Positions 8,002 to 57,698 are shown, counted from the stretch's first letter. The stretch: DNA of 59,652 nucleotides from Burkholderiales bacterium (GCA_036398235.1 DASWHI010000140.1:1-59652); one strand, 5' to 3'. Translations and numbers: made by a program. Notes: generated from the sequence alone by a model not told the origin.

Positions 8002-9081
8002 ATGTATACCCAGGCCGTTCCATCCAGTGCGCTCGCGCGCAAGCTCGGCGCGGTCGCTGCGGGCACCAAGATTCCGTTTCGCGTGGTGCTCGCGGACGGT
8101 ACTGTCATCGGGAACCGGGGCGCGAGCCCAGCGTTCACGCTGACGTTCCGGACCCGGAGCGCGGAGCTCCGCACGGTCGCGTACGGTTATGTCGGCCTGC
8201 TGGAGTCGTACATTGCCGGCGGCGTCGACATCGACGGTGACATCGCGCTCGCGGTTCGCGCCGGATCCGAGAGCGGCTACAACCGGGCGCCGAACCTGTT
8301 GCTGAGACTGCGCAACCGCTGGCACGAGTGGCGTTTCTCGAACCGCTCGATCGCGCAGGCGAAGGCGAACGCGCGTTACCACTACGGCCTGGGCGAGGCG
8401 TTCTACCGCTACTGGCTCGATACGGCGGGCATGATGTACACCTGCGCCTACTGGGCGGAGGGCACGAGTACGCTCGAGCAAGCGCAGAAGAACAAGATGG
8501 ATCACGTCTGCCGCAAGGTGCGGCTGGAGGCGGGCGAGACCTTCGTGGATGTCGGCTGCGGCTGGGGCGGCCTGCTGTTTCACGCCTGGGAGAATTACGG
8601 CGCGCTCGGCACCGGCATCAACACCACGACCGAGCAGGTGGCGGAGCTGCGCGCCGAGCTCGCGCGGCGCGGGCTCACGGACAAGATCGGGCTCGTCGGC
8701 ACTCGCGACACCGAGCTCTTCATCCGCAAGTACATTTTTCCCGGCGGCTGGATCCCGAGCCTGGCACAGGCGATCGACTGGATGGAGCGCTGCGGTCTCG
8801 AGGTGCTCGAAATCGAGAATTTGCGCCGGCACTACGCGCTGACGCTCGACGCCTGGGGCGAGCGCTTCGACCGGAACTGGAACGCGATCCACGCCCTCGA
8901 TCCGCACCGCTTCGACGAGGCCTTTCGGCGCAGTTGGCGTGCTTACTTGTGGTCCTGTGCCGATGTGTTCCGATCGACCCTGGACCTCAATCTGTTTCAG
9001 GTGACCGTCAGCAAGGGAAATGTCGGGACCGGCTATCCGATGAGCCGGTCGTTCCTCTATCGCCCGCCAGATAAACCTTAG
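8002..9081 (+). CDS. Cyclopropane-fatty-acyl-phospholipid synthase family methyltransferase (apparently internally shortened)
   Basis: YHYGLGEAFYRYWLD, MMYTCAYW, VDVGCGWGGL, RKYIFPGGWIPS and a C-terminal LWSCADVF...LFQVTVSK, all typical of the CFA-synthase fold. Confidence 0.8.
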   Translation: MYTQAVPSSALARKLGAVAAGTKIPFRVVLADGTVIGNRGASPAFTLTFRTRSAELRTVAYGYVGLLESYIAGGVDIDGDIALAVRAGSESGYNRAPNLLLRLRNRWHEWRFSNRSIAQAKANARYHYGLGEAFYRYWLDTAGMMYTCAYWAEGTSTLEQAQKNKMDHVCRKVRLEAGETFVDVGCGWGGLLFHAWENYGALGTGINTTTEQVAELRAELARRGLTDKIGLVGTRDTELFIRKYIFPGGWIPSLAQAIDWMERCGLEVLEIENLRRHYALTLDAWGERFDRNWNAIHALDPHRFDEAFRRSWRAYLWSCADVFRSTLDLNLFQVTVSKGNVGTGYPMSRSFLYRPPDKP

Positions 9082-9196
9082 GGCGATGGCTTGCCAGCTC
9101 ACTTCTTCTTTTTGTGCGCCTCCGCCACGGCGCCATCGCCTGAAACCGCTGCGTCCGGCGTTGCTCGAGGAACCTCGCCCGATTTACGAGTGATGG

Positions 9197-9556
9197 GTGA
9201 TGTATACTGATTTGCCAGCGCGCCAGGTGCGCGGCATGCGGTGGCACAGAGGGCCCATGACCTACTTCGTGGAAGGATTGAGCGGGCACACCGAACCCGA
9301 AACCAGGGTGCGGCGGGTCGGCGAATACGATTCGCTGCCGGAGGCCGTTGCTGCCGCGAAGCGCCTGGTGGACGGCTACCTGCGGCGCGAGCATAAGCCC
9401 GGCATGGAGCCGCGGACGCTCCTCTCGAAGTACCAGGACCAGGGCGAGCATCCCTACATCTTCCGCGACGACGACGCGACCTTCAACGTGCCGGGATTCA
9501 ACCACCTTCACTACGCCACCTCGCGCAGCGGCGACATCTGCGCCGGGAAGAAATAA
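9197..9556 (+). CDS. Hypothetical protein
   Basis: ORF only. The start is uncertain (an ATG at 9257 is also possible). Confidence 0.35.
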   Translation: MMYTDLPARQVRGMRWHRGPMTYFVEGLSGHTEPETRVRRVGEYDSLPEAVAAAKRLVDGYLRREHKPGMEPRTLLSKYQDQGEHPYIFRDDDATFNVPGFNHLHYATSRSGDICAGKK

Positions 9557-9618
9557 CAGCACGCTTGCGTCCGGGAGGCGGCGCCGTCACCGGCGCCGTT
9601 TTTACGAGGGAAAGAGAA

Positions 9619-10596
9619 ATGCTGAATGCAGCAATTTACGGGCTGGGGCGGTGGGGCAACCGCCTGGTGGAATCGGTGCAGGGAAGCAGCAAGATCAAGT
9701 TCGTGAAGGGAATCTCCCGCGATCCGGCGAAGCACCAGGAATTTTCGCAGAAGACCGGCATCAAGGTCGTCTCGTCCTACGGCCGCGTGCTGAAGGATCC
9801 CGAAATCGGCGCGGTTATTCTCGCGACGCCGCATTCGCTGCACGTCAAGCAGATCCAGCAGGCGGCGAAGGCGGGCAAGCATGTGTTCTGCGAGAAGCCG
9901 CTGACGCTTACGCGCAAGACCGCCGAGAAGGCCGTCGAGGCCTGCCGCGCGGCGGGCGTCACGCTCTCCATCGGATTCAACCGCCGGCACGCGCCCTCGT
10001 TTGTAGAGATGATGAACCGCATCCGCGCCGGGGCGATCGGCGACGTGCTGCACGTCGAAGCGACGCATTCCGGTCCCACCGGCTACAACCTGGACGCGGC
10101 GAGCTGGCGCTCCACCCGCGCCGAGGCCCCGGCGGGGGGCATGACTGCGCGCGGCATCCACACGCTGGACGGCATGATCCAGATTGCGGGGCCGGTCGCG
10201 AGCGTCTACGCGTTCAGCGACAAGCGCAAGATTGCCCCCGAGGTGGACATGGACGACACGACTTCCATGCTGCTCAAGTTCGCGAGTGGCGCGACCGGAT
10301 CACTCAGCACCGTGTTTGTGACCGCCGACCTCTACCACATGCGGGTGTTCGGCTCGAAGGGCTGGATCGAGATGCGCGGCGACACCGAGCTCATCATGCG
10401 CGGGCTCCAGGGCCAGCCGGAGCGCATCACGCTGCCGGCGGCGGACAAGGAGAAGGCGGAGCTGGAGGCGTTCGCCGATGCCGTCGCGGAAAAGAAGAAC
10501 TTCGTCGTGCCGCCGGAGGAAGCGATCAACGGGGTCGCCGTGCTGGAAGCGATCGTTGCCTCGGCGGCGAAGGGCAAGCCCATACAAATCAAATAA
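9619..10596 (+). CDS. Gfo/Idh/MocA-family NAD(P)-dependent oxidoreductase
   Basis: MLNAAIYGLGRWG Rossmann N-terminus and the EKPL motif (HVFCEKPLTL). Confidence 0.8.
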   Translation: MLNAAIYGLGRWGNRLVESVQGSSKIKFVKGISRDPAKHQEFSQKTGIKVVSSYGRVLKDPEIGAVILATPHSLHVKQIQQAAKAGKHVFCEKPLTLTRKTAEKAVEACRAAGVTLSIGFNRRHAPSFVEMMNRIRAGAIGDVLHVEATHSGPTGYNLDAASWRSTRAEAPAGGMTARGIHTLDGMIQIAGPVASVYAFSDKRKIAPEVDMDDTTSMLLKFASGATGSLSTVFVTADLYHMRVFGSKGWIEMRGDTELIMRGLQGQPERITLPAADKEKAELEAFADAVAEKKNFVVPPEEAINGVAVLEAIVASAAKGKPIQIK

Positions 10597-48503: not shown

Positions 48504-48577
48504 GCGGGTGTAGTTCAATGGCAGAACATCAGCTTCCCAAGCTGAATACGTGGGTTCGATTCCCATCACCCGCTCCA
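48504..48577 (+). tRNA. tRNA-Gly (anticodon CCC)
   Basis: Hand-folded cloverleaf: acceptor GCGGGTG/CACCCGC, D stem GTTC/GAAC, anticodon stem TCAGC/GCTGA with loop TTCCCAA, T loop TTCGATT, and an encoded 3' CCA. Confidence 0.9.
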
Positions 48578-48772: not shown

Positions 48773-48791
48773 ATTCCCATCACCCGCTCCA
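48773..48791 (+). repeat. Direct repeat of the tRNA-Gly 3' end (att-like scar)
   Basis: attcccatcacccgctcca is identical to 48559-48577. Confidence 0.85.
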
Positions 48792-48868: not shown

Positions 48869-49876
48869 TTACGGCTGAGTGGAATTCAGGCCCACGAAGG
48901 TGCCGCCGTTGTAGCGCGCGAGCTCGCGCATCAGCGTGGCGAAACGGACCCCGGTGTAGCTCGACTGCGCCGGCGGCCCGAAAGTCGTCGGAAAACCTAC
49001 GCCGTGGATCCGGACCGGCCGGTTGCCCGAGGCGTCGGGGCGGTTCAACTGATCGACCCTCCGCACCACGTCGTCGATGGAGGGGCCGGTGAACTCGTCG
49101 CCGAAGATGTAGAGGCTGATCTTGTGGTCCGGGTTGCGGTACATGCGGATCGCCGTCTCGATGCCTTCCGCGGGGCTGCTCTTGCTGAACGGCTTCCAGT
49201 CGCGCAGGCGCTCGACGATCGCGGCCCGGCGGGCGGTGCTGTCCGGAATCCACTGGCCGCCGTACTGCGAGAACATGAACTGCCCGATGTCGCTCATCAC
49301 CTGTATGCCCTTGACCCGGGGATAGACCTTGAGGGTTTCCTCCACCTTGCGTCGCATCGCCGACCAGGCGAGCGATTGCATGCTGCCCGAGGTGTCGATG
49401 ATGAATATGACGTACTCGCTGTCCACCGGAATTCCTGCGACGAATCGCTCCGGCGGCGGCGCCCGGCGCTGCGCGAGGAGCCGCTTCATTTCCTCGGTAA
49501 GCTCCTGCTGGGCCAGCGCCAGCTGATCGCGGATGCGGTTCTGCACCGTTGCGGTGTCGCGCGCGGCCCGGTAGCGGCCTTCGATGACGGTGAGTTCGTC
49601 CTGGTAGCGGGCCACCAGCCGCTCCGCCTTCGCGAGATCGGCGTGCTGCGCGGCGAGTTGCGCGCGCAGCGACTTCAGGCGCGCCTCGATCTCGGCGCGC
49701 TCTTCCTGCAGTACGCGCAGTTCGGCGCGCAGCGTCTCCGCGTCGCGTTCCGTCACCTGGGGCTCGGCGCCGCGCGCGATGACGAACAGCAGCAGGACGG
49801 CGCCGAAGCCGCAGAAGATGGCGTCGAGGAACGAGAGCGAGACGCCTTCGAACTCCCGCCTGCGCCGCCGGCTCAC
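48869..49876 (-). CDS. ExbD/TolR-like TM helix + coiled coil + VWA domain protein (paralog 2)
   Basis: GTG start overlapping the upstream stop (GTGA). The N-terminus VSRRRRREFEGVSLSFLDAIFCGFGAVLLLFVI aligns with paralog 1. Long heptad-like segment. MIDAS motif IFIIDTSGSM. Confidence 0.75.
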   Translation of the reverse strand: MSRRRRREFEGVSLSFLDAIFCGFGAVLLLFVIARGAEPQVTERDAETLRAELRVLQEERAEIEARLKSLRAQLAAQHADLAKAERLVARYQDELTVIEGRYRAARDTATVQNRIRDQLALAQQELTEEMKRLLAQRRAPPPERFVAGIPVDSEYVIFIIDTSGSMQSLAWSAMRRKVEETLKVYPRVKGIQVMSDIGQFMFSQYGGQWIPDSTARRAAIVERLRDWKPFSKSSPAEGIETAIRMYRNPDHKISLYIFGDEFTGPSIDDVVRRVDQLNRPDASGNRPVRIHGVGFPTTFGPPAQSSYTGVRFATLMRELARYNGGTFVGLNSTQP

Positions 49877-50967
49877 GGCCAATCCTCCGCGGGGCTGATG
49901 AACGAGCCGCGGCTCACCTGCGCGAGCCGCCAGAAGGCGGACGCCGCCATGGGGTCGCCCTCCAGGGGGAGGAGAATCACGTTGACCGGTATGCCCCGGG
50001 GAAAGCTTGCCAGCGCGTCGTCGAAGTAGCGCAGGCGCTCTCCGCCCGGGATCGTGTAGCGCTCGCCACGCTCGCGGTCGATCGTGGGGAGTCCATCGGT
50101 CACGAGGAACACGTTGTCGGGCCGGGGCTTCAACTCGCTCACGACCTTGAACGCGTGGTAGAGGCTCGTCCCGCCTGCGGGAACGATCTTCTTCGCGGCA
50201 TCGACCGCGCCGTTGAGTACCGCCGGATCGCCCGCGTCGAGCCAGCGCCCGGCGCTCTCGCGCACCACCGGCTCGGCGCGCTCGTTGAAGGCGTAGATCT
50301 GGAATCGCGAGCCGGGAGGGACCTGGGTTGCAATCCAGTCCAGCGTAGCGAGCGCCCGGCGCCATTTGGCCGCCTGGCGCTGCTCGGCCGCGGGAAGGTT
50401 GCGCAGCCGCACGATTTCGGCGATGCGCTCGGCCAGCATGCTCGCGGAGGTGTCGAACAGGATGAGGATGCGCTCGCCTCCGACCTTGAGGCCGGTGAGA
50501 TACTGGCGGTCGCCTTGCCCCCGGAAGGCCCGCAGGCGATCGCCCTCCTCGGCGCGTTGCAGGGCACCGCCTTCCAGGCGCTTCAACTCCTCATCGCGGG
50601 ACTTGAGGTCGGCCTTCAGGCGATTGACATGCGTCTCGCGGGCGATGCTGTTGGTTTCGAGCTGCGCGAGGTCGTAGCGCCGGCCCGCGATGCTCTCGGT
50701 CAGGGTCCGCGCCTGGGCGAACAGGCGCTGATTGCGGCCGCCCGCCCGCTCGACGTCCGCGCCGAGTGCGGCAGCCTGTTCCCGGCCGCTCAAGACCTGC
50801 CGCTCCAGCGCCTCCATTTCCAGTTTGAGGGCCTCGCTTGCCTCGCGCCGCTGGGCGACGGCGCTGTGGCTCAGTATGAGAAACAGCAGCACGAGGGCGC
50901 CAAAGCCGCAGCAGATCGCGTCGAGAAACGACAGGCTGAGGGTCGTGAGAGGGCGGCGGCGTTTCAT
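49873..50967 (-). CDS. ExbD/TolR-like TM helix + coiled coil + VWA domain protein (paralog 1)
   Basis: MKRRRPLTTLSLSFLDAICCGFGALVLLFLIL, a coiled coil, then MIDAS elements LILFDTSASM, GGTSL and LVTDG. Confidence 0.8.
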   Translation of the reverse strand: MKRRRPLTTLSLSFLDAICCGFGALVLLFLILSHSAVAQRREASEALKLEMEALERQVLSGREQAAALGADVERAGGRNQRLFAQARTLTESIAGRRYDLAQLETNSIARETHVNRLKADLKSRDEELKRLEGGALQRAEEGDRLRAFRGQGDRQYLTGLKVGGERILILFDTSASMLAERIAEIVRLRNLPAAEQRQAAKWRRALATLDWIATQVPPGSRFQIYAFNERAEPVVRESAGRWLDAGDPAVLNGAVDAAKKIVPAGGTSLYHAFKVVSELKPRPDNVFLVTDGLPTIDRERGERYTIPGGERLRYFDDALASFPRGIPVNVILLPLEGDPMAASAFWRLAQVSRGSFISPAEDWP

Positions 50968-50986
50968 GTAGTGAACACGACGCTCG

Positions 50987-51784
50987 CTAGCTGGTGCGCA
51001 TGTGCCGGATCAGGCGGTCGTTCACGTAGGTCTCGGTATCCAGCGCCAGGCGCTCCTGCGCGAGCTGGAGCTGATGGACCAGAAACATGAGGACAACGGC
51101 GAGCAGCAGGGCGACGAGCGTCGAGTTGAACGCAGTCCCGAGATTCTCCGTGACGCCGGTGATGTCGCCCTGCACCGCGCGATGGGCGAGCTCCATCGCG
51201 TTGCCGATGCCGCGCACCGTCCCGATGAAGCCGATGGAAGGGATCGCCCACGCGATATAGCGGATCTGCGCGAGCTCGGAATCGAGCCGGTCACCCTCGT
51301 TCTGGCACAGGGCGCTCGTGGCGGTGGCCGCGTCCTGCACGCTGCGTGACGTTTCGAACCGCGTGAGCGACTGGAACAGTGCCCGGGGCAGGAGCAGGTT
51401 GCGCAGGGAGGGCTTCAGCGCTTCCAGCGGCTTGGCATAGCGCCGCGCATCCTCCGGCAGGATCTTGATGCCCTCGGCGAGCGGCACCAGGTCGCTCTCG
51501 AGCAATCCGCGCTCGCGCACCACGTCCGCCCACTTGTAGCCGAGTATCGCCAGCGCCCACAGCATGAGTATGATTTCCGCCTCCTGCTCGTAATCCTTGA
51601 GGATGACGTAAATCGAGGTCTCGGCCACCGCGTCGGGCTGCTTGGCCACGAGCGCGCGCTGCTCCGCGAGGTGTGCCTCGGCGTTGGGCCGCACGACGCT
51701 GACGTAGGCGCCGTGGACGAGAATGACGGAGAAGATGAGGGCGAAGAACTGGTAGACGAACTCGGCGGGGAAATGCTTGAACAT
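50987..51784 (-). CDS. MotA/TolQ/ExbB-family proton-channel protein
   Basis: 265 aa. Family-like C-terminal helices IPSIGFIGTVRGIGNAM and LGTAFNSTLVALLLAVVLMFLV, with a large cytoplasmic loop between the TM segments. Confidence 0.7.
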   Translation of the reverse strand: MFKHFPAEFVYQFFALIFSVILVHGAYVSVVRPNAEAHLAEQRALVAKQPDAVAETSIYVILKDYEQEAEIILMLWALAILGYKWADVVRERGLLESDLVPLAEGIKILPEDARRYAKPLEALKPSLRNLLLPRALFQSLTRFETSRSVQDAATATSALCQNEGDRLDSELAQIRYIAWAIPSIGFIGTVRGIGNAMELAHRAVQGDITGVTENLGTAFNSTLVALLLAVVLMFLVHQLQLAQERLALDTETYVNDRLIRHMRTS

Positions 51785-51834
51785 GAGGGTCCTCGTGCGC
51801 GGACGGATGACGGCAGTTTAACGGTTGCGCCGGC

Positions 51835-52074
51835 TCAGATGTCCACCGGGAAGGAAACTGGGACATCCGATCTGGGCCGTTCCTCGCCGGCTCCCGTTCT
51901 CGGCGCTTTTCGCCGCGGAGCCGGCGGCGTTTCCGGTTTTCCCTGCTTCACCGGCGGTTTCGTCTCCGCGGCGGGCGGTGGCTTCGGGGGTTCGGTTTGC
52001 GGCGCGGCCGGGCTCGGAGCGGCGAGCCATGCCGCCGCCCAGATTGCAAGCGCGATGATTCTGACTGCAGTCAC
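51835..52074 (-). CDS. Small anchored Pro-rich (TonB-spacer-like) protein
   Basis: GTG start overlapping the upstream TGA. VTAVRIIALAIWAAAWLAAPSPAAPQTEPPKPPPAAETKPPVKQGKPETPPAPRRKAP. No globular C-terminal domain. Confidence 0.5.
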   Translation of the reverse strand: MTAVRIIALAIWAAAWLAAPSPAAPQTEPPKPPPAAETKPPVKQGKPETPPAPRRKAPRTGAGEERPRSDVPVSFPVDI

Positions 52075-54410
52075 GGCGCTTCCGTCACGTAGCGGGCGCA
52101 ACGAAACCCCACATCGGACCGCGGCTCCGTGCCGTAGTCCCGGTAGGTCCAGCGCAGCGCGCTCACGCTTGCCTGCATCCAGCTCGAGCCGCGTATGACG
52201 TGCTGCTTCCCCGCGGCCGGGCCGGTCGGGTCTTTCTCCGGCGCGGGGTTGGCCCGGATGTCGTAGAAGTCGTGGACCCATTCGGCGGCGTTGCCGGCGA
52301 GATCGAAGAACCCCGCGGGGCTCGCCGCGAAGCGGCCGATCGGCGCGGTACCCGCGTAGCCGTCGTCAAGGCTCTTCACCGTGTCGGCGAGCTCGCCGGA
52401 TGCCGAGCGGTCGGCGAAATTGCCGCTGCCCCGCGGCGGCGGCAGGTCATTGCCCCACGGAAAGCGGCTGTCCTTTGCGCCGCCGGCGCGGCGCGCTGCC
52501 CATTCCCATTCGGCCTCGGTGGGCAGGCGGAAGCCATTGCGCAGCGGCAGGACGGGTGTGAGCGCGCCCGGTCCGCCCGCATAGCTTGCCGGAAGTTTCG
52601 CCGCTTCGTTCAGCCAATTGCAGTAACCGGCCGCATCTTCCCACCGCACGTTCACGACCGGGTGAGACGGGACGTCGAGCCCCAGCGCGCCGAACCTGCC
52701 CGATTGGTGCTTGGGGCGGTACTTCTGGAATTGGGCGTTGGTCACTTCCGTCGCCCCGAGGTAGTAGGGGCGGACGAGGTCGACTTCGCGCAGTATCTCG
52801 TTGGCGCGCTGGCCCGGATCGCGGCGCGAGGCGCCCAAGGTGATGCGGCCGGGCCGCACGAGGATCATGACCGTGCCGTCCGGCGCCGCAATGCGCTCCG
52901 GCAGCGCGGCCTCCGCCCGCGCGCCGGCGGCGCGCAGCTTGACCGCCCGGGTCTGCTCGAAGCCGGGCTTGGGCGTCACCCAGAGCTGTACTGCCTGGAA
53001 GCCCTCCCGCGTGATCTCGAGGAGCGTCGGGGCAGCGAGAAGCGAATGTCGGCCGTTCGCCGGCCCGACCGCTCGCCCCTCGATGCTCAACACTGCGTCG
53101 CGCGGCTCGACTTCGAGCGTGACGTGACCCAGCTCGCTGCTCAAGGCGAGCTTCAGGTCACGCGCCTCGGCCGCTTCGAGGCGCACGGACCGGCTCGCCG
53201 TGCCGTAGCCGAGCCTGGAAACGGCAATTCGATGCTCGCGTCCCGGGCTGAGGGCGAGCGTGGTGGGGGTAGTTCCGGCGTAGCGGCCGTCCAAGGTGAT
53301 GCTCGCACCCGGAGGCGCGCTCTCCACCCGCAACTGGGCGTCAGCGGGGGAAAGCGCGACGGGCCCGATGGCTTGAGCCTGCCCGGCGGTGACGACGATG
53401 CTGCGCGTCCAGGACTTGTGTCGGGGAGCACGGATCTCGAGCGCCCGGGTTCCCGCGGGGAGGTCAATCGTTAAAGGCAAATCTCCGACCCGCTTGCCGT
53501 CCACCCAGAGCGCTGCGCCCGCGGTGCTCGCGCGAACGGTCACGGCGGCGGAGGCGGGGATGAGAGCCGCGACGATAGACTGGCGTTGCCCGAGTCCCTC
53601 GATCGAAACCGCCTGGGAAAACTCCGCGTAACCCTCGGCTCGAATGACGATCTCGTGATCACCCGCGGCGAGCTCGATGCCGGCGAGAGGCGTGTGCCCC
53701 TTGACCTCGCCGTCCGCAAGGACCGTGGCCTCCGCGATGCCGGGCGTCTCCACAACGAGAATGCCGGGCAGCTTGTCGAGAGCCAGTGACAGGCGTTGGT
53801 TATCCGCCCGGGTGACCTCCACGTCGCGGATGAGTTGCCGGTATCCGCTGCGCTCGGCCACCAGCCGGTATGCGCCGGGAAGCGCAAGGTAGCCTTCCCG
53901 AAGAGGCAGCGCCGGCAGCGTGCCGTGGAGGCTCATGCGGTCAGGTGCGGGCTGGAGCTCGACATAAAGCATGCGCGCGGAGAACACGAACCACAGGGCG
54001 CCCGCAAGCACCGCAAGCGCGAGCAGGACGTAGATCCCGCCGACGCGCCTGCCCCGGGGGGCTGGCGCGGGTAGGGGAGGAGTCAGCAGGATCGGCGGCG
54101 TGGGAGCCGCGAGATCGACATCGGCATCGGTCTGCAGCACGAGCCCGCCGTTCAGGACACGGACCACGAGAACGGCATCGCCGATCCGTGCGCGGTCGCC
54201 GTCACGCAGCCAGTGCGAGGCGGCAAGGCGATGGTCATTGAGAAATACCGCCACCCCGCCTTCGAGCGGCTGCAGGTACGGCGCACCGCCGGCGAGCGCC
54301 AGCGCGGCGCCGGGGCGCGCTCCGTCCGCACCCGGCGTCCTGATTAGCAGGGGCCCTGCGCCGAGATCCCCGTCGTCCACTCCCCGCGATCCGCGCACGC
54401 TGACTTTCAC
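52071..54410 (-). CDS. Cytoplasmic N-domain - TM - 5x PEGA - FGE-sulfatase (SUMF1-like) domain protein
   Basis: TM segment GGIYVLLALAVLAGALWFVF. Repeated PEGA-like units (e.g. VVETPGIAEATVLADGEVKGHTPL...). C-terminal RLPTEAEWEWAARR, GNAAEWV, VIRGSSW and VGFRCA motifs. Confidence 0.8.
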   Translation of the reverse strand: MKVSVRGSRGVDDGDLGAGPLLIRTPGADGARPGAALALAGGAPYLQPLEGGVAVFLNDHRLAASHWLRDGDRARIGDAVLVVRVLNGGLVLQTDADVDLAAPTPPILLTPPLPAPAPRGRRVGGIYVLLALAVLAGALWFVFSARMLYVELQPAPDRMSLHGTLPALPLREGYLALPGAYRLVAERSGYRQLIRDVEVTRADNQRLSLALDKLPGILVVETPGIAEATVLADGEVKGHTPLAGIELAAGDHEIVIRAEGYAEFSQAVSIEGLGQRQSIVAALIPASAAVTVRASTAGAALWVDGKRVGDLPLTIDLPAGTRALEIRAPRHKSWTRSIVVTAGQAQAIGPVALSPADAQLRVESAPPGASITLDGRYAGTTPTTLALSPGREHRIAVSRLGYGTASRSVRLEAAEARDLKLALSSELGHVTLEVEPRDAVLSIEGRAVGPANGRHSLLAAPTLLEITREGFQAVQLWVTPKPGFEQTRAVKLRAAGARAEAALPERIAAPDGTVMILVRPGRITLGASRRDPGQRANEILREVDLVRPYYLGATEVTNAQFQKYRPKHQSGRFGALGLDVPSHPVVNVRWEDAAGYCNWLNEAAKLPASYAGGPGALTPVLPLRNGFRLPTEAEWEWAARRAGGAKDSRFPWGNDLPPPRGSGNFADRSASGELADTVKSLDDGYAGTAPIGRFAASPAGFFDLAGNAAEWVHDFYDIRANPAPEKDPTGPAAGKQHVIRGSSWMQASVSALRWTYRDYGTEPRSDVGFRCARYVTEAP

Positions 54411-55531
54411 ACGCGTTCCTCGCAGGCGACGAAGACGCGCTGCGCCGGCGCATCGGGGTCTACGGTCACCTCGACGCGCACGTCCTTGTAGCCGGGCCGC
54501 GAGCCCACCAGCGTATAGGTCCCGGGCGTCAACGCGACTTCACGATCCTGAAAACGGCCCAGTGGCCCCACCCGCTGGAGCGTGACCTCGGTCGCATTGT
54601 CCGAAGTAAGACGGATCGTGACCTTGTTCGTCGCGCGCTTGAGGGCCGCGTCCAGCCGCTGGCGCTCCTGCGCGAGGCGAGGCCCGGCCCCCGCTTCGCG
54701 GTCGAGCGCGGCGAGAAACTGCTGGGCTTCCTCGCGCACGCGTGGAGAGTAGAGCCGCTCGGGGCTGGCGAGGTAGCGGTCGATCCGCGCGTGCAACCGG
54801 ATCATGCGCTCGCTGCGCGCGATGCCCTGCCGGGCAAAATCGACTGCCGGATCGATGGCCGCGGCGCGTTGATAGGCGGCAAGGGCTTCCTCCCAGCGCT
54901 CCGCCGATTCGAAGCCTTGAGCTTCACGCTGCAATCGGGAGAGCGCGTCGCGCTGCCCGCCCTCCTTCGCGCGCGCCAGCCCGTCCGCGGCCGGCCGATC
55001 GGCGGGGCGAAGCTTCAATGCGGCGCTGAACGATTGCTCGGCCCCCGGCCAGTCGGAGCGCTCCAGCTGACCGAGACCGCGCGTCATCAGCTTGTCGAAC
55101 TGCTGCTCGGCGAGGCGGCCTTCGGCGCGCGCCTGCTCCGGCTTGGCGGCCTTTCCCCCGGGGTCAGCCGCCGGAAGACGCGCGCGGACCTCATCCAGCG
55201 GCTCGACACGGGTGATCCCCTGCTGCGCCTTCCTCCGCTCCGCCTCCTCCGCCATCAGGCGCTGCCGTACCGCCTCCGCCGGGTCTGCGGTCGGGCTTGC
55301 CGCGCGGGGCGGCGAAGGAGGGGCTGCATCGGGGGGCTTGGTGCCGGTAGCGGGCGGCACCCGTGCCGGCAACATGAAGAAGATCACTGCCGTCAGGCCG
55401 AGTGCGGCAATCAGGGCTCCCGCCACCCAGCGGCCCGAAACCACCGCGTGGGTGCGGACACCGATCGGAACGGAGGGAGGCGGGGATGCGTCGCTGCGGG
55501 AATTTCCCGGTGCAGGTGGCGCGCTCGACAT
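54407..55531 (-). CDS. Single-TM TPR-repeat protein with C-terminal PEGA-like domain
   Basis: Start at MSSAPPAP. TM segment WVAGALIAALGLTAVIFFML. TPR-like WPGAEQSFSAALKLRP and WEEALAAYQRAAAIDP. The C-terminus LTPGTYTLVGSRPGYKDVRVEVTV is PEGA-like. Confidence 0.65.
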   Translation of the reverse strand: MSSAPPAPGNSRSDASPPPSVPIGVRTHAVVSGRWVAGALIAALGLTAVIFFMLPARVPPATGTKPPDAAPPSPPRAASPTADPAEAVRQRLMAEEAERRKAQQGITRVEPLDEVRARLPAADPGGKAAKPEQARAEGRLAEQQFDKLMTRGLGQLERSDWPGAEQSFSAALKLRPADRPAADGLARAKEGGQRDALSRLQREAQGFESAERWEEALAAYQRAAAIDPAVDFARQGIARSERMIRLHARIDRYLASPERLYSPRVREEAQQFLAALDREAGAGPRLAQERQRLDAALKRATNKVTIRLTSDNATEVTLQRVGPLGRFQDREVALTPGTYTLVGSRPGYKDVRVEVTVDPDAPAQRVFVACEERV

Positions 55532-55551
55532 GGAAGCCGCGCGGGTCGGGC

Positions 55552-56793
55552 TTATCGGTTCTGTCCCGGCTCCGGTGACGCGCCCGGCGCCGCCGCCGTC
55601 GTCGGCAGACCGGTCTCCGCGGTGAACAGCTCGCGCAGCGTCTTGCGCCACTCGGCGTACTGCGCGTCGACCGAGCCCGAAAGCTTGAGGGTGCGGCCTT
55701 CGACCTCGTCGAGGACCGGGGCGACATCGGCCTTGAACGACACGCCGAGCTCCTTCAGCGCCGCTTCGTGGACCCTCGCGTCGTTCGCGAACTGTCCGCT
55801 CGAGCGGATGAGCTCGTATCCGCCGATGATCAGCACGTTTGCGGCCGCCGCGCCCCCGCCCGAATTGCTATTGGAGCCGACCACGGCAGCGCCGACAATC
55901 GCCGCGGCACCGAGAATGCGCCGCTCCCAGGTCTTGCGCTCCAGCTCGCGCTTCTGGTTCAGTTCCTGCAGGTAGGACCGGCGCCATTGGCCGTAGGGCT
56001 GCCGCATGTCGTCATAGAGGTTCGCGTAATAGTTGTTCACGGTGTCGATGAACATGTTCTCCCGGGCGCGGATCCGGTTGACGCGCTCGAACATGGGGTC
56101 GCTGTCGGCAGGCAGCCGGTTGACCGTGAATACTCCTTCTCCATTCTGGACCAGGTAGGATGCGAAGGCGTAGGGAACCAGGCTCCGCGCGAACTTGAGC
56201 TGCGCGACCGGCCGGATCGCGGCGATTTCCTTCTCGCTCAACTGCTGGCGGAAGGCCAGCATGTCGTTCGCGACCTGGTTGTAGAGATCCTGGTAGGGAT
56301 CGCGGTCCAGTTTCTTGTCCAGCGCTTCGTAGCTCTTCTCCGTGACTGCCGCTGTGTACTCGTTGTGGAACCACTCGCGGCCGGTAGCATCCACGACCTT
56401 GACCTCGACCCTCAGCCTCTCGCCGTTCGACTCGAGCAGCTTGCCCGAGACGTTGACGTCCACTTCCTCGGCGCGCGCGGGAACGACGCGCACCGCGCCC
56501 CATTGGCCCGTTTGCTGCAGCGTCTTCTTGAGGTGGAACGGAATGAACCGGGCCTCGGCTTCGAGGATCTTGGGATCCGTCTTCTGTTCCCGCGCCGCCT
56601 CGGCGCTGATCTCGGCCGTCTCGAATACCTGAATGCCCACGTCGAGCAGGGCCGCGTCGGCCAGCGCCCGATCGGCGTGAATCGCTTCCGTCGGTTCTAC
56701 GGTGTACTTGACGGGCCCGCTCGCGCAGCCGGAAATGCCGGCTGCCGCGAGCGCCGCGGCGAGCCACCGGAATCCGCGCCGCGCCGCGCTCAC
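55552..56793 (-). CDS. Lipoprotein of unknown function with Gly-rich C-proximal hydrophobic segment
   Basis: GTG start overlapping the upstream TGA. Lipobox LAAAGISGC. Segment ILGAAAIVGAAVVGSNSNSGGGAAAANVLIIGGY. Confidence 0.6.
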   Translation of the reverse strand: MSAARRGFRWLAAALAAAGISGCASGPVKYTVEPTEAIHADRALADAALLDVGIQVFETAEISAEAAREQKTDPKILEAEARFIPFHLKKTLQQTGQWGAVRVVPARAEEVDVNVSGKLLESNGERLRVEVKVVDATGREWFHNEYTAAVTEKSYEALDKKLDRDPYQDLYNQVANDMLAFRQQLSEKEIAAIRPVAQLKFARSLVPYAFASYLVQNGEGVFTVNRLPADSDPMFERVNRIRARENMFIDTVNNYYANLYDDMRQPYGQWRRSYLQELNQKRELERKTWERRILGAAAIVGAAVVGSNSNSGGGAAAANVLIIGGYELIRSSGQFANDARVHEAALKELGVSFKADVAPVLDEVEGRTLKLSGSVDAQYAEWRKTLRELFTAETGLPTTAAAPGASPEPGQNR

Positions 56794-57698
56794 CCTTTGG
56801 TGCCCTGTTTGTACCTGCGGTACTCGTCCCACAGCTTTGCCCTCAGCTCCGGATCGGGTTCCGATTCGGCGAGCTTGCGAATCTGACGCGCGACGACGTC
56901 ATCGTCGGATCCGTCGCCCACATCGGGGGGCCTTGCCGCCGTGGCGCCCGTGGATCCGGGAGTGCCGCCTTCGATCCGGCCGCCCGGAGAACCCGGCTCG
57001 CCGGCCGATCCCTGCGTGGTCCCGCTGCCGCTGCCTGAGCGAGCCACATCAGGGGCCTTCGACCCGGCGCCGCCTCCCTTGGTCCGCCCCTCGGCTGCGG
57101 TGCTCCCGCCGGACCCTCCCGGGGATCCCGCCCCGCCGCTGGCTCCCCGCGTCCGGGCGCGGCGCGCCTCCTCGAGGAGAAGCTGGTCGAAATCCGCGAG
57201 GGAAACGCCCAGCCTGGTTTCGAGTGCCGCCACTTCTTCCGCCTGGGTGGCCGCGGGCGGTGCCTTGCCGTCCCCCGGCATTGCCTGCGGCGCGCTCCCA
57301 GACGCGGAATCTACCGCCTGGGAGAGATTCCGGACCCGCTCGCGGTTCGAAGCCACCATGTCCCGCACGCGCGCGACGTATTCGTCGAGGCGCTGGCGCT
57401 GCTCGGGTCCCGTCGCAGGATCCGAGCGTGCGACCTCCGCACGCTCGGTCACCCGTGCCAGCACCTGCTCGCTGATGGCGAGATCGTGACGCGCTTGGGC
57501 AAGCTCGCTTCGCGGATCGGCATGCGCCGGTGTTGCCAGGATCGCCAGCCATAGCAGTGTCCCGGCCACGTACCCCGCCGCCCGCCCCGGGCGCCCACGT
57601 TCGTGACAAAAGCCGCGACCGCCGCGCCGGCTTTGGCCGGTGGCTTGGCGAGCGCGGGTGCTGAATCGTGCCCCGTCAAATAACCTCTTGATGTGCAT
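56790..57698 (-). CDS. Secreted coiled-coil / Gly-Ser-rich protein with acidic C-terminal helix
   Basis: ATG at 57698 chosen (the longest ORF begins at a TTG at 57794). Hydrophobic LLWLAILATPAHA followed by DP. C-terminus DDDVVARQIRKLAESEPDPELRAKLWDEYRRYKQG. Start uncertain. Confidence 0.5.
   Translation of the reverse strand: MHIKRLFDGARFSTRARQATGQSRRGGRGFCHERGRPGRAAGYVAGTLLWLAILATPAHADPRSELAQARHDLAISEQVLARVTERAEVARSDPATGPEQRQRLDEYVARVRDMVASNRERVRNLSQAVDSASGSAPQAMPGDGKAPPAATQAEEVAALETRLGVSLADFDQLLLEEARRARTRGASGGAGSPGGSGGSTAAEGRTKGGGAGSKAPDVARSGSGSGTTQGSAGEPGSPGGRIEGGTPGSTGATAARPPDVGDGSDDDVVARQIRKLAESEPDPELRAKLWDEYRRYKQGTKG

Follow-up and report, generated by a model that had tools for sequence, protein, structure and literature searches.

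What kind of system is encoded where a TolQ-like channel gene is followed by two genes for membrane-anchored VWA proteins, and by no exbD or tolR? The question is raised by a block of eight genes, here called g1 to g8 in their 5' to 3' order, at positions 48869-57698 of a 59,652-nucleotide (nt) stretch of DNA from a Burkholderiales bacterium (GCA_036398235.1 DASWHI010000140.1:1-59652), the whole of which is referred to below as the window. The answer that we consider probable is that the locus encodes a proton-driven TolQ-like motor with VWA-headed stalks (g6, g7 and g8), together with a set of conserved accessory genes (g1 to g5), and it is built here from the channel protein, the VWA paralogs, their transmembrane (TM) helices, the distribution of the block among bacteria and, finally, the accessory proteins themselves.

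The channel protein g6 had been called MotA/ExbB-like in a first-pass annotation of this DNA, and the searches agree with it: g6 matches Pfam MotA_ExbB (PF01618) above its cut-off (E 5.5e-12), the only solved structures matched in a PDB search are TolQ chains, and in the PDB alignment T189 (I-G-T-V) and T222 (N-S-T) fall on both pore threonines of TolQ. These two threonines are invariant in 73 g6 orthologs and belong to the invariant motifs W-A-I-P-S-I-G-F-I-G-T189-V-R-G-I and L-G-x-A-F-N-S-T222. With the NCBIfam TolQ model (TIGR02796) the match is at E 4e-6, with 26.7 bits for a cut-off of 221. By sequence, then, g6 is a member of the MotA/ExbB/TolQ family with TolQ as its nearest solved relative, and it is presumed to be a pentamer.

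The two genes that follow encode what are, from their sequences, clear paralogs, since g7 and g8 find each other by BLASTP (1e-15) and an alignment of their family profiles has a probability of 99.6% (E 2e-24). Because the matches of both to Pfam VWA_2 lie below the cut-off (E 6e-4 for g8), and the VWA family profile retrieves mainly coiled-coil noise from the PDB sequences, the VWA fold was tested by structure prediction. The AlphaFold2 model of g7, built with 43 homologs (predicted local distance difference test, pLDDT, 80.7), has one helix at residues 10-134, then a linker predicted to be disordered, then an alpha/beta domain (pLDDT >90) for which the top PDB matches in Foldseek are all VWA domains (probability 1.00). 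This domain of g7 (166-357) has a complete metal ion-dependent adhesion site (MIDAS), formed by D172-x-S174-x-S176, T267 and D291, all invariant columns of the family alignment. The VWA domain of g8 is divergent, with an invariant D161-T-S163-G-S165, S-S-P replacing G-T-S, which puts a Ser in place of the MIDAS Thr, and G-D260-E. The first-pass annotation had given both paralogs a periplasmic part made of a coiled coil and a VWA/MIDAS domain, with neither an ExbD/TolR fold nor an OmpA-like domain, and this is borne out, by the model and Foldseek for g7 and by paralogy for g8; Pfam finds neither the ExbD/TolR fold (PF02472) nor an OmpA-like peptidoglycan-binding domain in any of the eight products, so that the periplasmic domains typical of ExbD, TolR and MotB are missing from the block. 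In g7 the AlphaFold2-disordered linker at the junction of coiled coil and VWA domain carries a near-invariant G-x-G-D-R-Q-Y-L-T-G-x-K-x-G-G (residues 150-164, window 50476-50520), which is deleted in g8 and may be a docking motif.

At their N-termini, g7 and g8 have a cluster of Arg and Lys and then a TM helix with S-F-L-D-x3-C-G-F/L-G-A, in which reading of the sequences finds no His and no SHLS motif. The basic stretch ahead of the helix implies an N-in topology, like that of ExbD, TolR and MotB. As the first-pass annotation had noted, both paralogs keep the hallmark aspartate in this helix (D16 in g7, D18 in g8), and no sequence that covers the motif is without it: it is there in 82/82 g7 and 65/77 g8 open reading frames (ORFs) of the fetched loci and in those representatives of 50%-identity clusters that are full-length. 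It is also an invariant column in both family alignments. One could suppose that there is no rotary motor at all, g7 and g8 being plain periplasmic VWA scaffolds with a membrane anchor, g6 acting alone, as a channel or stress protein, or with an ExbD/TolR encoded elsewhere, and the aspartate serving, for example, oligomerisation or metal binding. The failure of profile searches to link the TM helix with ExbD, TolR or MotB speaks for this: a profile of 24 N-termini had no match in the PDB at E up to 10, hhalign of the N-termini with E. coli ExbD and TolR put Asp on Asp at a non-significant P of 0.04 and a probability of 1%, and C-G-F-G-A, in which Cys-Gly-Phe-Gly is conserved, does not resemble the consensus of ExbD, TolR and MotB. 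We nevertheless regard it as quite unlikely, because an invariant acidic residue lies near the cytoplasmic end of the helix in two paralogs, always beside a TolQ-family gene with the pore Thr, because no ExbD or TolR was detected in the window or in 82 related loci by phmmer with E. coli ExbD and TolR, and because a published AlphaFold3 model puts such helices in the pore (PMC12204202).

The paper from which this model comes (Mol Biol Evol, June 2025; section 8, Fig. 4c-d) describes TM-tethered vWA proteins encoded beside tolQ-like genes, with no tolR or exbD, that occur "predominantly in heterologous pairs", lack SHLS and have "the conserved proton-binding aspartate", the class being found mainly in Proteobacteria and Verrucomicrobia (PMC12204202). 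Its seed is from Idiomarina loihiensis, and in its AlphaFold3 models of Idiomarina proteins paired transpore helices lie inside a TolQ-like pentamer, with the Asp ringed by Thr. It offers AlphaFold3 models only, reporting no experiments or phenotypes, raises gliding only for another, SHLS-type vWA family, and is silent on PEGA, FGE/sulfatase-fold, lipoprotein, small peptide and Hsp70-like proteins (PMC12204202), while a study of MotAB evolution sampled only paired A and B subunits, which leaves the class outside its scope (PMC12505986). Assigned by the published descriptive features, our locus appears to be a member of this 'transpore-helix vWA' (TPH-vWA)/TolQ-like motor family: the TolQ-family gene is adjacent (19 nt), tolR, exbD and motB are absent, the vWA genes form a heterologous pair, the transpore-helix Asp comes without SHLS, and the Thr pair, predicted to lie at the lumen, is conserved. 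The family as collected here includes Verrucomicrobia and Gammaproteobacteria, in agreement with the published distribution. The claim of the first-pass annotation that the system is undescribed thus has to be given up, its core having been defined in PMC12204202, although its statement that no characterised system has such a composition still stands, as that work gives models only. Its reading of the block as a motor of the Mot/Exb/Tol type with VWA-bearing pore subunits is reasonable, and was arrived at independently in PMC12204202. What is possibly new here is the conserved accessory block around the published core; no paper describing these accessory genes was found in full-text literature searches.

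The same annotation had proposed to search gene neighbourhoods with the VWA paralogs and see whether the block is conserved. With relatives of g7, ORFs were called in all fetched loci (82) and searched with the eight window proteins, and the 44 loci with enough upstream flank are referred to as long loci. The block is conserved: g1, g2, g3, g4, g6, g7 and g8 are all present in 40/44 long loci, with an order that almost never changes. These loci span Proteobacteria, Acidobacteriota, Desulfobacterota and Myxococcota, and the core is also found in Verrucomicrobiota. Both VWA genes occur in 77/82 loci, most or all of the exceptions being contigs that end before g8, and the channel gene adjoins the VWA genes in every fetched locus whose contig covers it. 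Even where the order is broken, as in a metagenome-assembled genome of Myxococcales (L016, 7353-19794), where g6, a ninth gene (gX), g7 and g8 precede an inverted g4-g3-g2-g1 group on the other strand, the block holds together, so that their linkage has survived a rearrangement. In the verrucomicrobial locus the series is a PEGA-FGE protein, a small gene, MotA_ExbB, a 499-residue gX and two VWA genes. This verrucomicrobial version, from Puniceicoccaceae K14 (L083; 4323-7584 and 12252-13944), also has extra genes for proteins of 746, 338 and 229 residues with no Pfam match, and a CsgG-family gene adjoins its block. From these comparisons, conservation of the whole block across phyla points to a trans-envelope machine.

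The family is widespread, and the window holds a slightly reduced member of it. Relatives of g7 form 1347, 678 and 285 clusters at 50% identity for E up to 1e-3, 1e-10 and 1e-30, respectively, and at least about 5900 clusters at 90% identity for E up to 1e-10 (8000 candidates scored). They occur in at least 579 species genomes, the best 80 of which belong to Beta- and Gammaproteobacteria, Acidobacteriota, Desulfobacterota and Myxococcota, and g7 identity across phyla is 44-51%. The nearest homologs among the matches listed are from uncultured soil and sediment Burkholderiales; carriers of the family include one verrucomicrobium representative and one cultured organism, Chromatocurvus halotolerans. 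The gene gX (about 460 residues; for example, 8626-10005 in locus L021) lies between g6 and g7 in 70/82 loci, including 37/44 long loci, and is missing only in the window, where no copy was found elsewhere, and in close Burkholderiales relatives. Its profile matches Hsp70 nucleotide-binding domains in the N-terminal part (SSB1 2.8e-5, DnaK 4e-3) and FHA domains at the C-terminus (6e-7; Pfam FHA 5e-13 in single sequences). Since gX is present in most relatives, the canonical system has a cytoplasmic component with an actin/Hsp70 fold and an FHA domain, and the window represents a reduced eight-gene variant of the TPH-vWA family, from a lineage without the Hsp70-like/FHA gene.

Among the accessory proteins, g4 matches Pfam PEGA (2e-39) and FGE-sulfatase (3.8e-45). 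It had been annotated at first as a TM helix, five PEGA repeats and an FGE domain, all of which we find, but a cytoplasmic FHA-like domain and the loss of the catalytic cysteines had been overlooked: the protein has an FHA-like domain at about 1-100, the TM helix, about five PEGA repeats and an FGE/C-type-lectin-like domain at 513-773. For the N-terminal domain the sole Pfam match is a weak one to FHA (E 0.0035-0.13 for g4 itself and three of its orthologs), and a jackhmmer search connects it with the bona fide FHA domains of gX, which suggests a degenerate FHA-like domain. In the FGE-like domain, which matches SUMF1 (8e-26) and PorK (3e-21) in the PDB, the positions of the SUMF1 catalytic residues Cys336 and Cys341 are both substituted (M-Q-A-S-V-S-A), so it is non-catalytic; the domain is conserved rather than hypervariable, scoring about 500 bits across phyla. 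Where it reaches the periplasm, the TM helix of g4 (window 53964-54030) has a motif, (A)-W-F-V-F-T-A-R-x-V, that is kept across phyla and suggests a specific contact in or near the membrane, possibly with the TolQ-like pentamer. If any protein of the operon holds a peripheral position on the motor like that of TolA or GltG, g4 would, by analogy, be a better candidate than g5: its FHA-like domain adjoins a TM helix whose end is conserved and beyond which the protein extends far into the periplasm.

A rival reading, which differs from our preferred explanation in the output only, assigns the motor to gliding, adhesion or secretion as part of a surface machine like Agl-Glt or the type IX secretion system (T9SS), and not to upkeep of the envelope. 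The PorK match in the PDB is accompanied by one to NCBIfam GldK (3e-31), and the parts list parallels that of Agl-Glt, both having an FHA domain by a TM helix, TPR and VWA, to which most relatives add an ATPase of actin fold. The GldK match, however, reaches 109 bits for a cut-off of 350, SUMF1 fits g4 better than PorK does, and the block includes no GldL, GldM or GldN, no Glt outer-membrane barrels, no secretion ATPase and no secretin. Unlike the VWA adhesin CglB, a surface lipoprotein, the VWA proteins here are anchored in the inner membrane, and the hosts have many lifestyles, including that of anaerobic sediment Desulfobacterales. We consider a surface machine unlikely.

The first three genes had been annotated as encoding a secreted coiled-coil/GS-rich protein, a lipoprotein and a TM-TPR-PEGA protein. 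For g1 this is right, the protein having a signal peptide (...ATPAHA|DP), a helical or coiled-coil segment, a long disordered stretch rich in Gly and Ser, and a conserved charged C-terminus; it has no credible match in Pfam, NCBIfam or PADLOC (the top one below threshold is DUF1552, 19 bits for a cut-off of 30), and its orthologs head the block in most long loci. It is right for g2 also, whose lipobox, L-S-G-C, has no Asp at position +2, making it probably an outer-membrane lipoprotein. More than 1300 homologs of g2 exist, none annotated; Pfam and NCBIfam give no match, and the family profile finds nothing in the PDB. The AlphaFold2 model of g2 (pLDDT 79.6, predicted template modelling score 0.75) has an N-terminal alpha/beta domain and a long helical hairpin of about 120 residues (234-353), with a hydrophobic stretch rich in Gly and Ala at its tip (about 295-325). 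Foldseek matches to the model are weak, and seven of the top eight are to the TolB N-terminal domain (best E 8e-3). The hairpin has weak Foldseek matches to the alpha-pore-forming toxins SmhB, AhlB and MakA and to Vipp1, a hint from the model that it may insert in a membrane. In g3 a single TM helix follows a cytoplasmic N-terminus and leads, by way of a Pro-rich linker, to TPR repeats (Pfam TPR_2, 28.6 bits, just above the cut-off of 27) and a C-terminal beta-sandwich of PEGA/CarboxypepD_reg type, for which the matches to PEGA (0.028) and CarboxypepD_reg (5.6e-4) are weak. No conserved His or SHLS was found in the TM helices of g3 and g4, and the His of g3 varies even among close relatives.

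For g5 the reading has to change. The first-pass annotation took this small protein for a TonB-like anchor and the last four genes for a copy of the tonB-exbB-exbD1-exbD2 layout. What g5 encodes is a secreted peptide, in which a signal peptide is followed by a Pro-rich linker and then by a conserved C-terminus ending in ...D-V-P-V-S-F-P-V-D-I-COOH. ORFs of this FPVDI type stand at the g5 position in 36 loci, many of them with clear cleavable signal peptides, and in these loci the C-terminus has the form ...F-x-P-S/T-E-K-...-D-...-V/I-S/D-F-P-V-D-I-COOH, after a variable acidic or Pro-rich linker. Its motif kept across phyla (window 51835-51885) can be written ...P-S/T-E-K-x-x-x-D-x-x-V-S-F-P-V-D-I-COOH. 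A membrane-anchored TonB-like protein was rejected on account of these signal peptides, the lack of His or SHLS in the hydrophobic segment and the lack of a C-terminal domain, and with it goes the likeness to a tonB-exbB-exbD1-exbD2 layout. Its conserved C-terminus makes g5 a candidate ligand of the VWA MIDAS sites or of the TPR/PEGA proteins.

A motor of this family with unusual partners also brings to mind a Zorya-type anti-phage or envelope-surveillance defence, in which a MotAB-like complex would sense perturbation of the envelope and signal inward. PADLOC reports weak ZorA matches on g6 (E 0.0046-0.016), the FHA-type modules suggest signalling, and conflict systems make repeated use of vWA, FGE-like and PEGA domains, although a paper on the vWA and FGS domains of such systems describes no MotA-linked one. 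But g6 has no long ZorA tail, and the block has no nuclease or other effector and no ZorB, ZorC or ZorD; as the first-pass annotation had stated, no TonB C-terminal domain, MoxR or nuclease is found in the eight products by Pfam, NCBIfam or PADLOC, nor is ExbD, TolR or MotB. No AAA+ domain was found in the block, so that it is not a MoxR-vWA or Bat-type system either, in which a MoxR ATPase goes with a vWA protein. Sequence and gene order are highly conserved across phyla, the genes on either side are housekeeping ones and form no defence island, the FGE-like domain is not hypervariable, and no relatives were found in 2.9 million viral contigs. With such conservation across phyla, such flanks and no viral relatives, a constitutive role in the envelope is the likelier one, and defence we regard as highly improbable.

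We therefore return to the proton-driven motor with VWA-headed stalks and envisage it as follows. The TolQ-like g6 would form a pentamer in the inner membrane, and the N-terminal helices of g7 and g8 would make up a heterodimeric axle in its pore, giving a 5:1:1 assembly in which D16 and D18 bind protons and face the ring of Thr; proton flow would drive relative rotation, as in other 5:2 motors. Beyond the pore each subunit would run on as a periplasmic coiled coil, about 100 residues and some 15 nm long, to which a short linker joins the VWA head with its MIDAS. As there is no separate TolR and TolA (or ExbD and TonB), force or torque would go straight to whatever the heads bind, presumably a partner near the peptidoglycan or the outer membrane, for which g2 and the acidic C-terminus of g5 are the candidates within the operon. 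Around the motor, g2 would be an outer-membrane lipoprotein, g3, with its TPR, and g4, with its PEGA rod, lectin-like FGE head and cytoplasmic FHA-like domain, would be periplasmic stalks anchored in the inner membrane, g1 would be a periplasmic coiled-coil protein, and g5 would be secreted, its invariant acidic C-terminus offering the MIDAS a plausible ligand. The output, at a guess and by analogy with Tol-Pal, could be envelope maintenance or tethering. To our knowledge, all characterised 5:2 ion-driven motors (Mot, Exb, Tol, Agl, Gld, Zor) power a major envelope process.

Several points weigh against this model. The family is a computationally defined one; g6 resembles TolQ weakly and may, judging by its sequence, have four hydrophobic segments where TolQ has three; and homology of the TM helices to ExbD, TolR or MotB is undetectable by sequence, so that insertion into the pore rests on the logic of the motif and on the published AlphaFold3 prediction (PMC12204202). 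The likeness of g2 to the N-terminal domain of TolB is weak and unsupported by sequence, which makes a TolB-like reading a lead from the model, and a lineage without gX may work differently or be partly degenerate. If the model is true, pore subunit and force transducer are one polypeptide, and the locus would offer a simple system for the study of how rotation in the membrane comes to do work on the outer membrane. Hypotheses and genetic handles are provided by the conserved partners, chiefly lipoprotein, lectin-like stalk, FPVDI peptide and FHA modules, and cultured hosts are at hand in Chromatocurvus halotolerans and Idiomarina.

The layout of the operon was established by ORF calling, with the starts checked base by base (Table 1). 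The eight co-directional, tightly packed genes of the first-pass annotation, with their small gaps and overlaps, are confirmed in coordinates and junctions, the observation being accurate and far beyond chance, and the gene calls of the relative with an 83% identical g7 (279, 415, 376, 779, 79, 265, 364 and 335 residues) match the starts used in the window. Four junctions (g1/g2, g3/g4, g4/g5 and g7/g8) are 4-nt GTGA overlaps, by which the genes appear to be translationally coupled; the gaps at g5/g6 and g6/g7 are of 50 and 19 nt. A scan of the block for promoters and terminators was uninformative. On one side the window has a radical-SAM HemN-like gene, trmB, thiG, thiS and a tRNA-Gly, all housekeeping genes, and on the opposite, upstream side asmA and mutY are seen in the 83% relative. 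The tRNA-Gly(CCC), at 48504-48577, lies just downstream of the operon, and an exact 19-nt duplicate of its 3' end, ATTCCCATCACCCGCTCCA, is found about 195 bp off at 48773-48791, between that gene and the stop of g8. No such repeat is expected by chance, and it looks like the remnant of an att site left by a past integration at the tRNA-Gly; the operon is not flanked by it on both sides.

Table 1. Genes of the TolQ-like/VWA block, with positions counted from the first nucleotide of the window
Gene	Positions	Strand	Product	Start and junction
g1	56790-57698	minus	Secreted coiled-coil protein	
g2	55552-56793	minus	Lipoprotein	GTG, overlapping g1 stop
g3	54407-55531	minus	TM-TPR protein	ATG, 20 nt past g2 stop
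g4	52071-54410	minus	FHA-like + TM + PEGA + FGE-like protein	
g5	51835-52074	minus	Small Pro-rich secreted peptide, 79 residues	GTG, overlapping g4 stop
g6	50987-51784	minus	TolQ/ExbB/MotA-family channel subunit, 265 residues	
g7	49873-50967	minus	VWA paralog 1 (TM + coiled coil + VWA)	
g8	48869-49876	minus	VWA paralog 2 (TM + coiled coil + VWA)	GTG, overlapping g7 stop

Set beside the known systems, the block shares with Zorya a non-flagellar complex of the MotAB family encoded with unusual partners, but unlike Zorya it has no long ZorA tail, no peptidoglycan-binding domain of ZorB and no ZorC/D effectors; the ZorA matches on the 265-residue g6 are weak, and PADLOC gives no further match worth mention and calls no system. 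In the T9SS, too, a 5:2 motor (GldLM) is encoded with an FGE-sulfatase-fold protein without catalytic cysteines, GldK/PorK, which is an outer-membrane lipoprotein, whereas in g4 it is a run of PEGA repeats that links the FGE-like domain to the inner membrane; the GldK score of g4 is far below its cut-off, and NCBIfam gives no match to GldL, GldM or GldN in the block. The Agl-Glt machinery of Myxococcus xanthus combines a TolQ/TolR-like motor with the FHA-TM protein GltG, TPR proteins, the VWA protein CglB and the actin-fold MreB, and the FHA domain and adjoining TM helix of GltG have been predicted to dock on the TolQ-like pentamer of AglR. Our block has neither the Glt outer-membrane barrels nor TonB-like C-terminal domains, its VWA domains are in the pore subunits of the putative motor and not in a surface lipoprotein such as CglB, and homology is limited to shared domains.

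With ExbB-ExbD-TonB the locus has in common a channel of the MotA/ExbB family and single-pass partners with a TM Asp, and some Ton loci carry two ExbD paralogs. It differs in having no ExbD periplasmic fold, no TonB and no TonB-dependent receptor: g5 has neither a His in its hydrophobic segment nor a TonB C-terminal domain, and a TM His is not conserved in g3 or g4. From Tol-Pal it departs in that the roles of TolR and TolA appear to be fused in each of two paralogs, with a VWA head instead of TolA domain III, and in lacking the TolB beta-propeller, the OmpA-like domain of Pal and a peripheral helix of the SHLS type; by sequence TolR, TolA, TolB and Pal are all absent, and g6 stays at 26.7 of the 221 bits set for TolQ. 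The likenesses to Tol-Pal are nonetheless several, comprising what would be a proton-driven motor in the inner membrane, a long helical stalk with a globular head, an outer-membrane lipoprotein and a TPR protein; TolQ is, among solved structures, the one nearest to g6, and the fold of g2 is weakly TolB-N-like. We propose, tentatively and at somewhat less than even odds, that the block of eight or nine genes is an unrecognised trans-envelope machine of several phyla, a third relative of Tol-Pal and Ton. Its dedicated partners would be an outer-membrane lipoprotein, PEGA/lectin-like and TPR stalks, a secreted peptide ligand and, in most lineages, a cytoplasmic Hsp70-fold/FHA module, and they would act with pore subunits that, by their TolR-like helix, TolA-like stalk and VWA/MIDAS head, would themselves be the force transducers.

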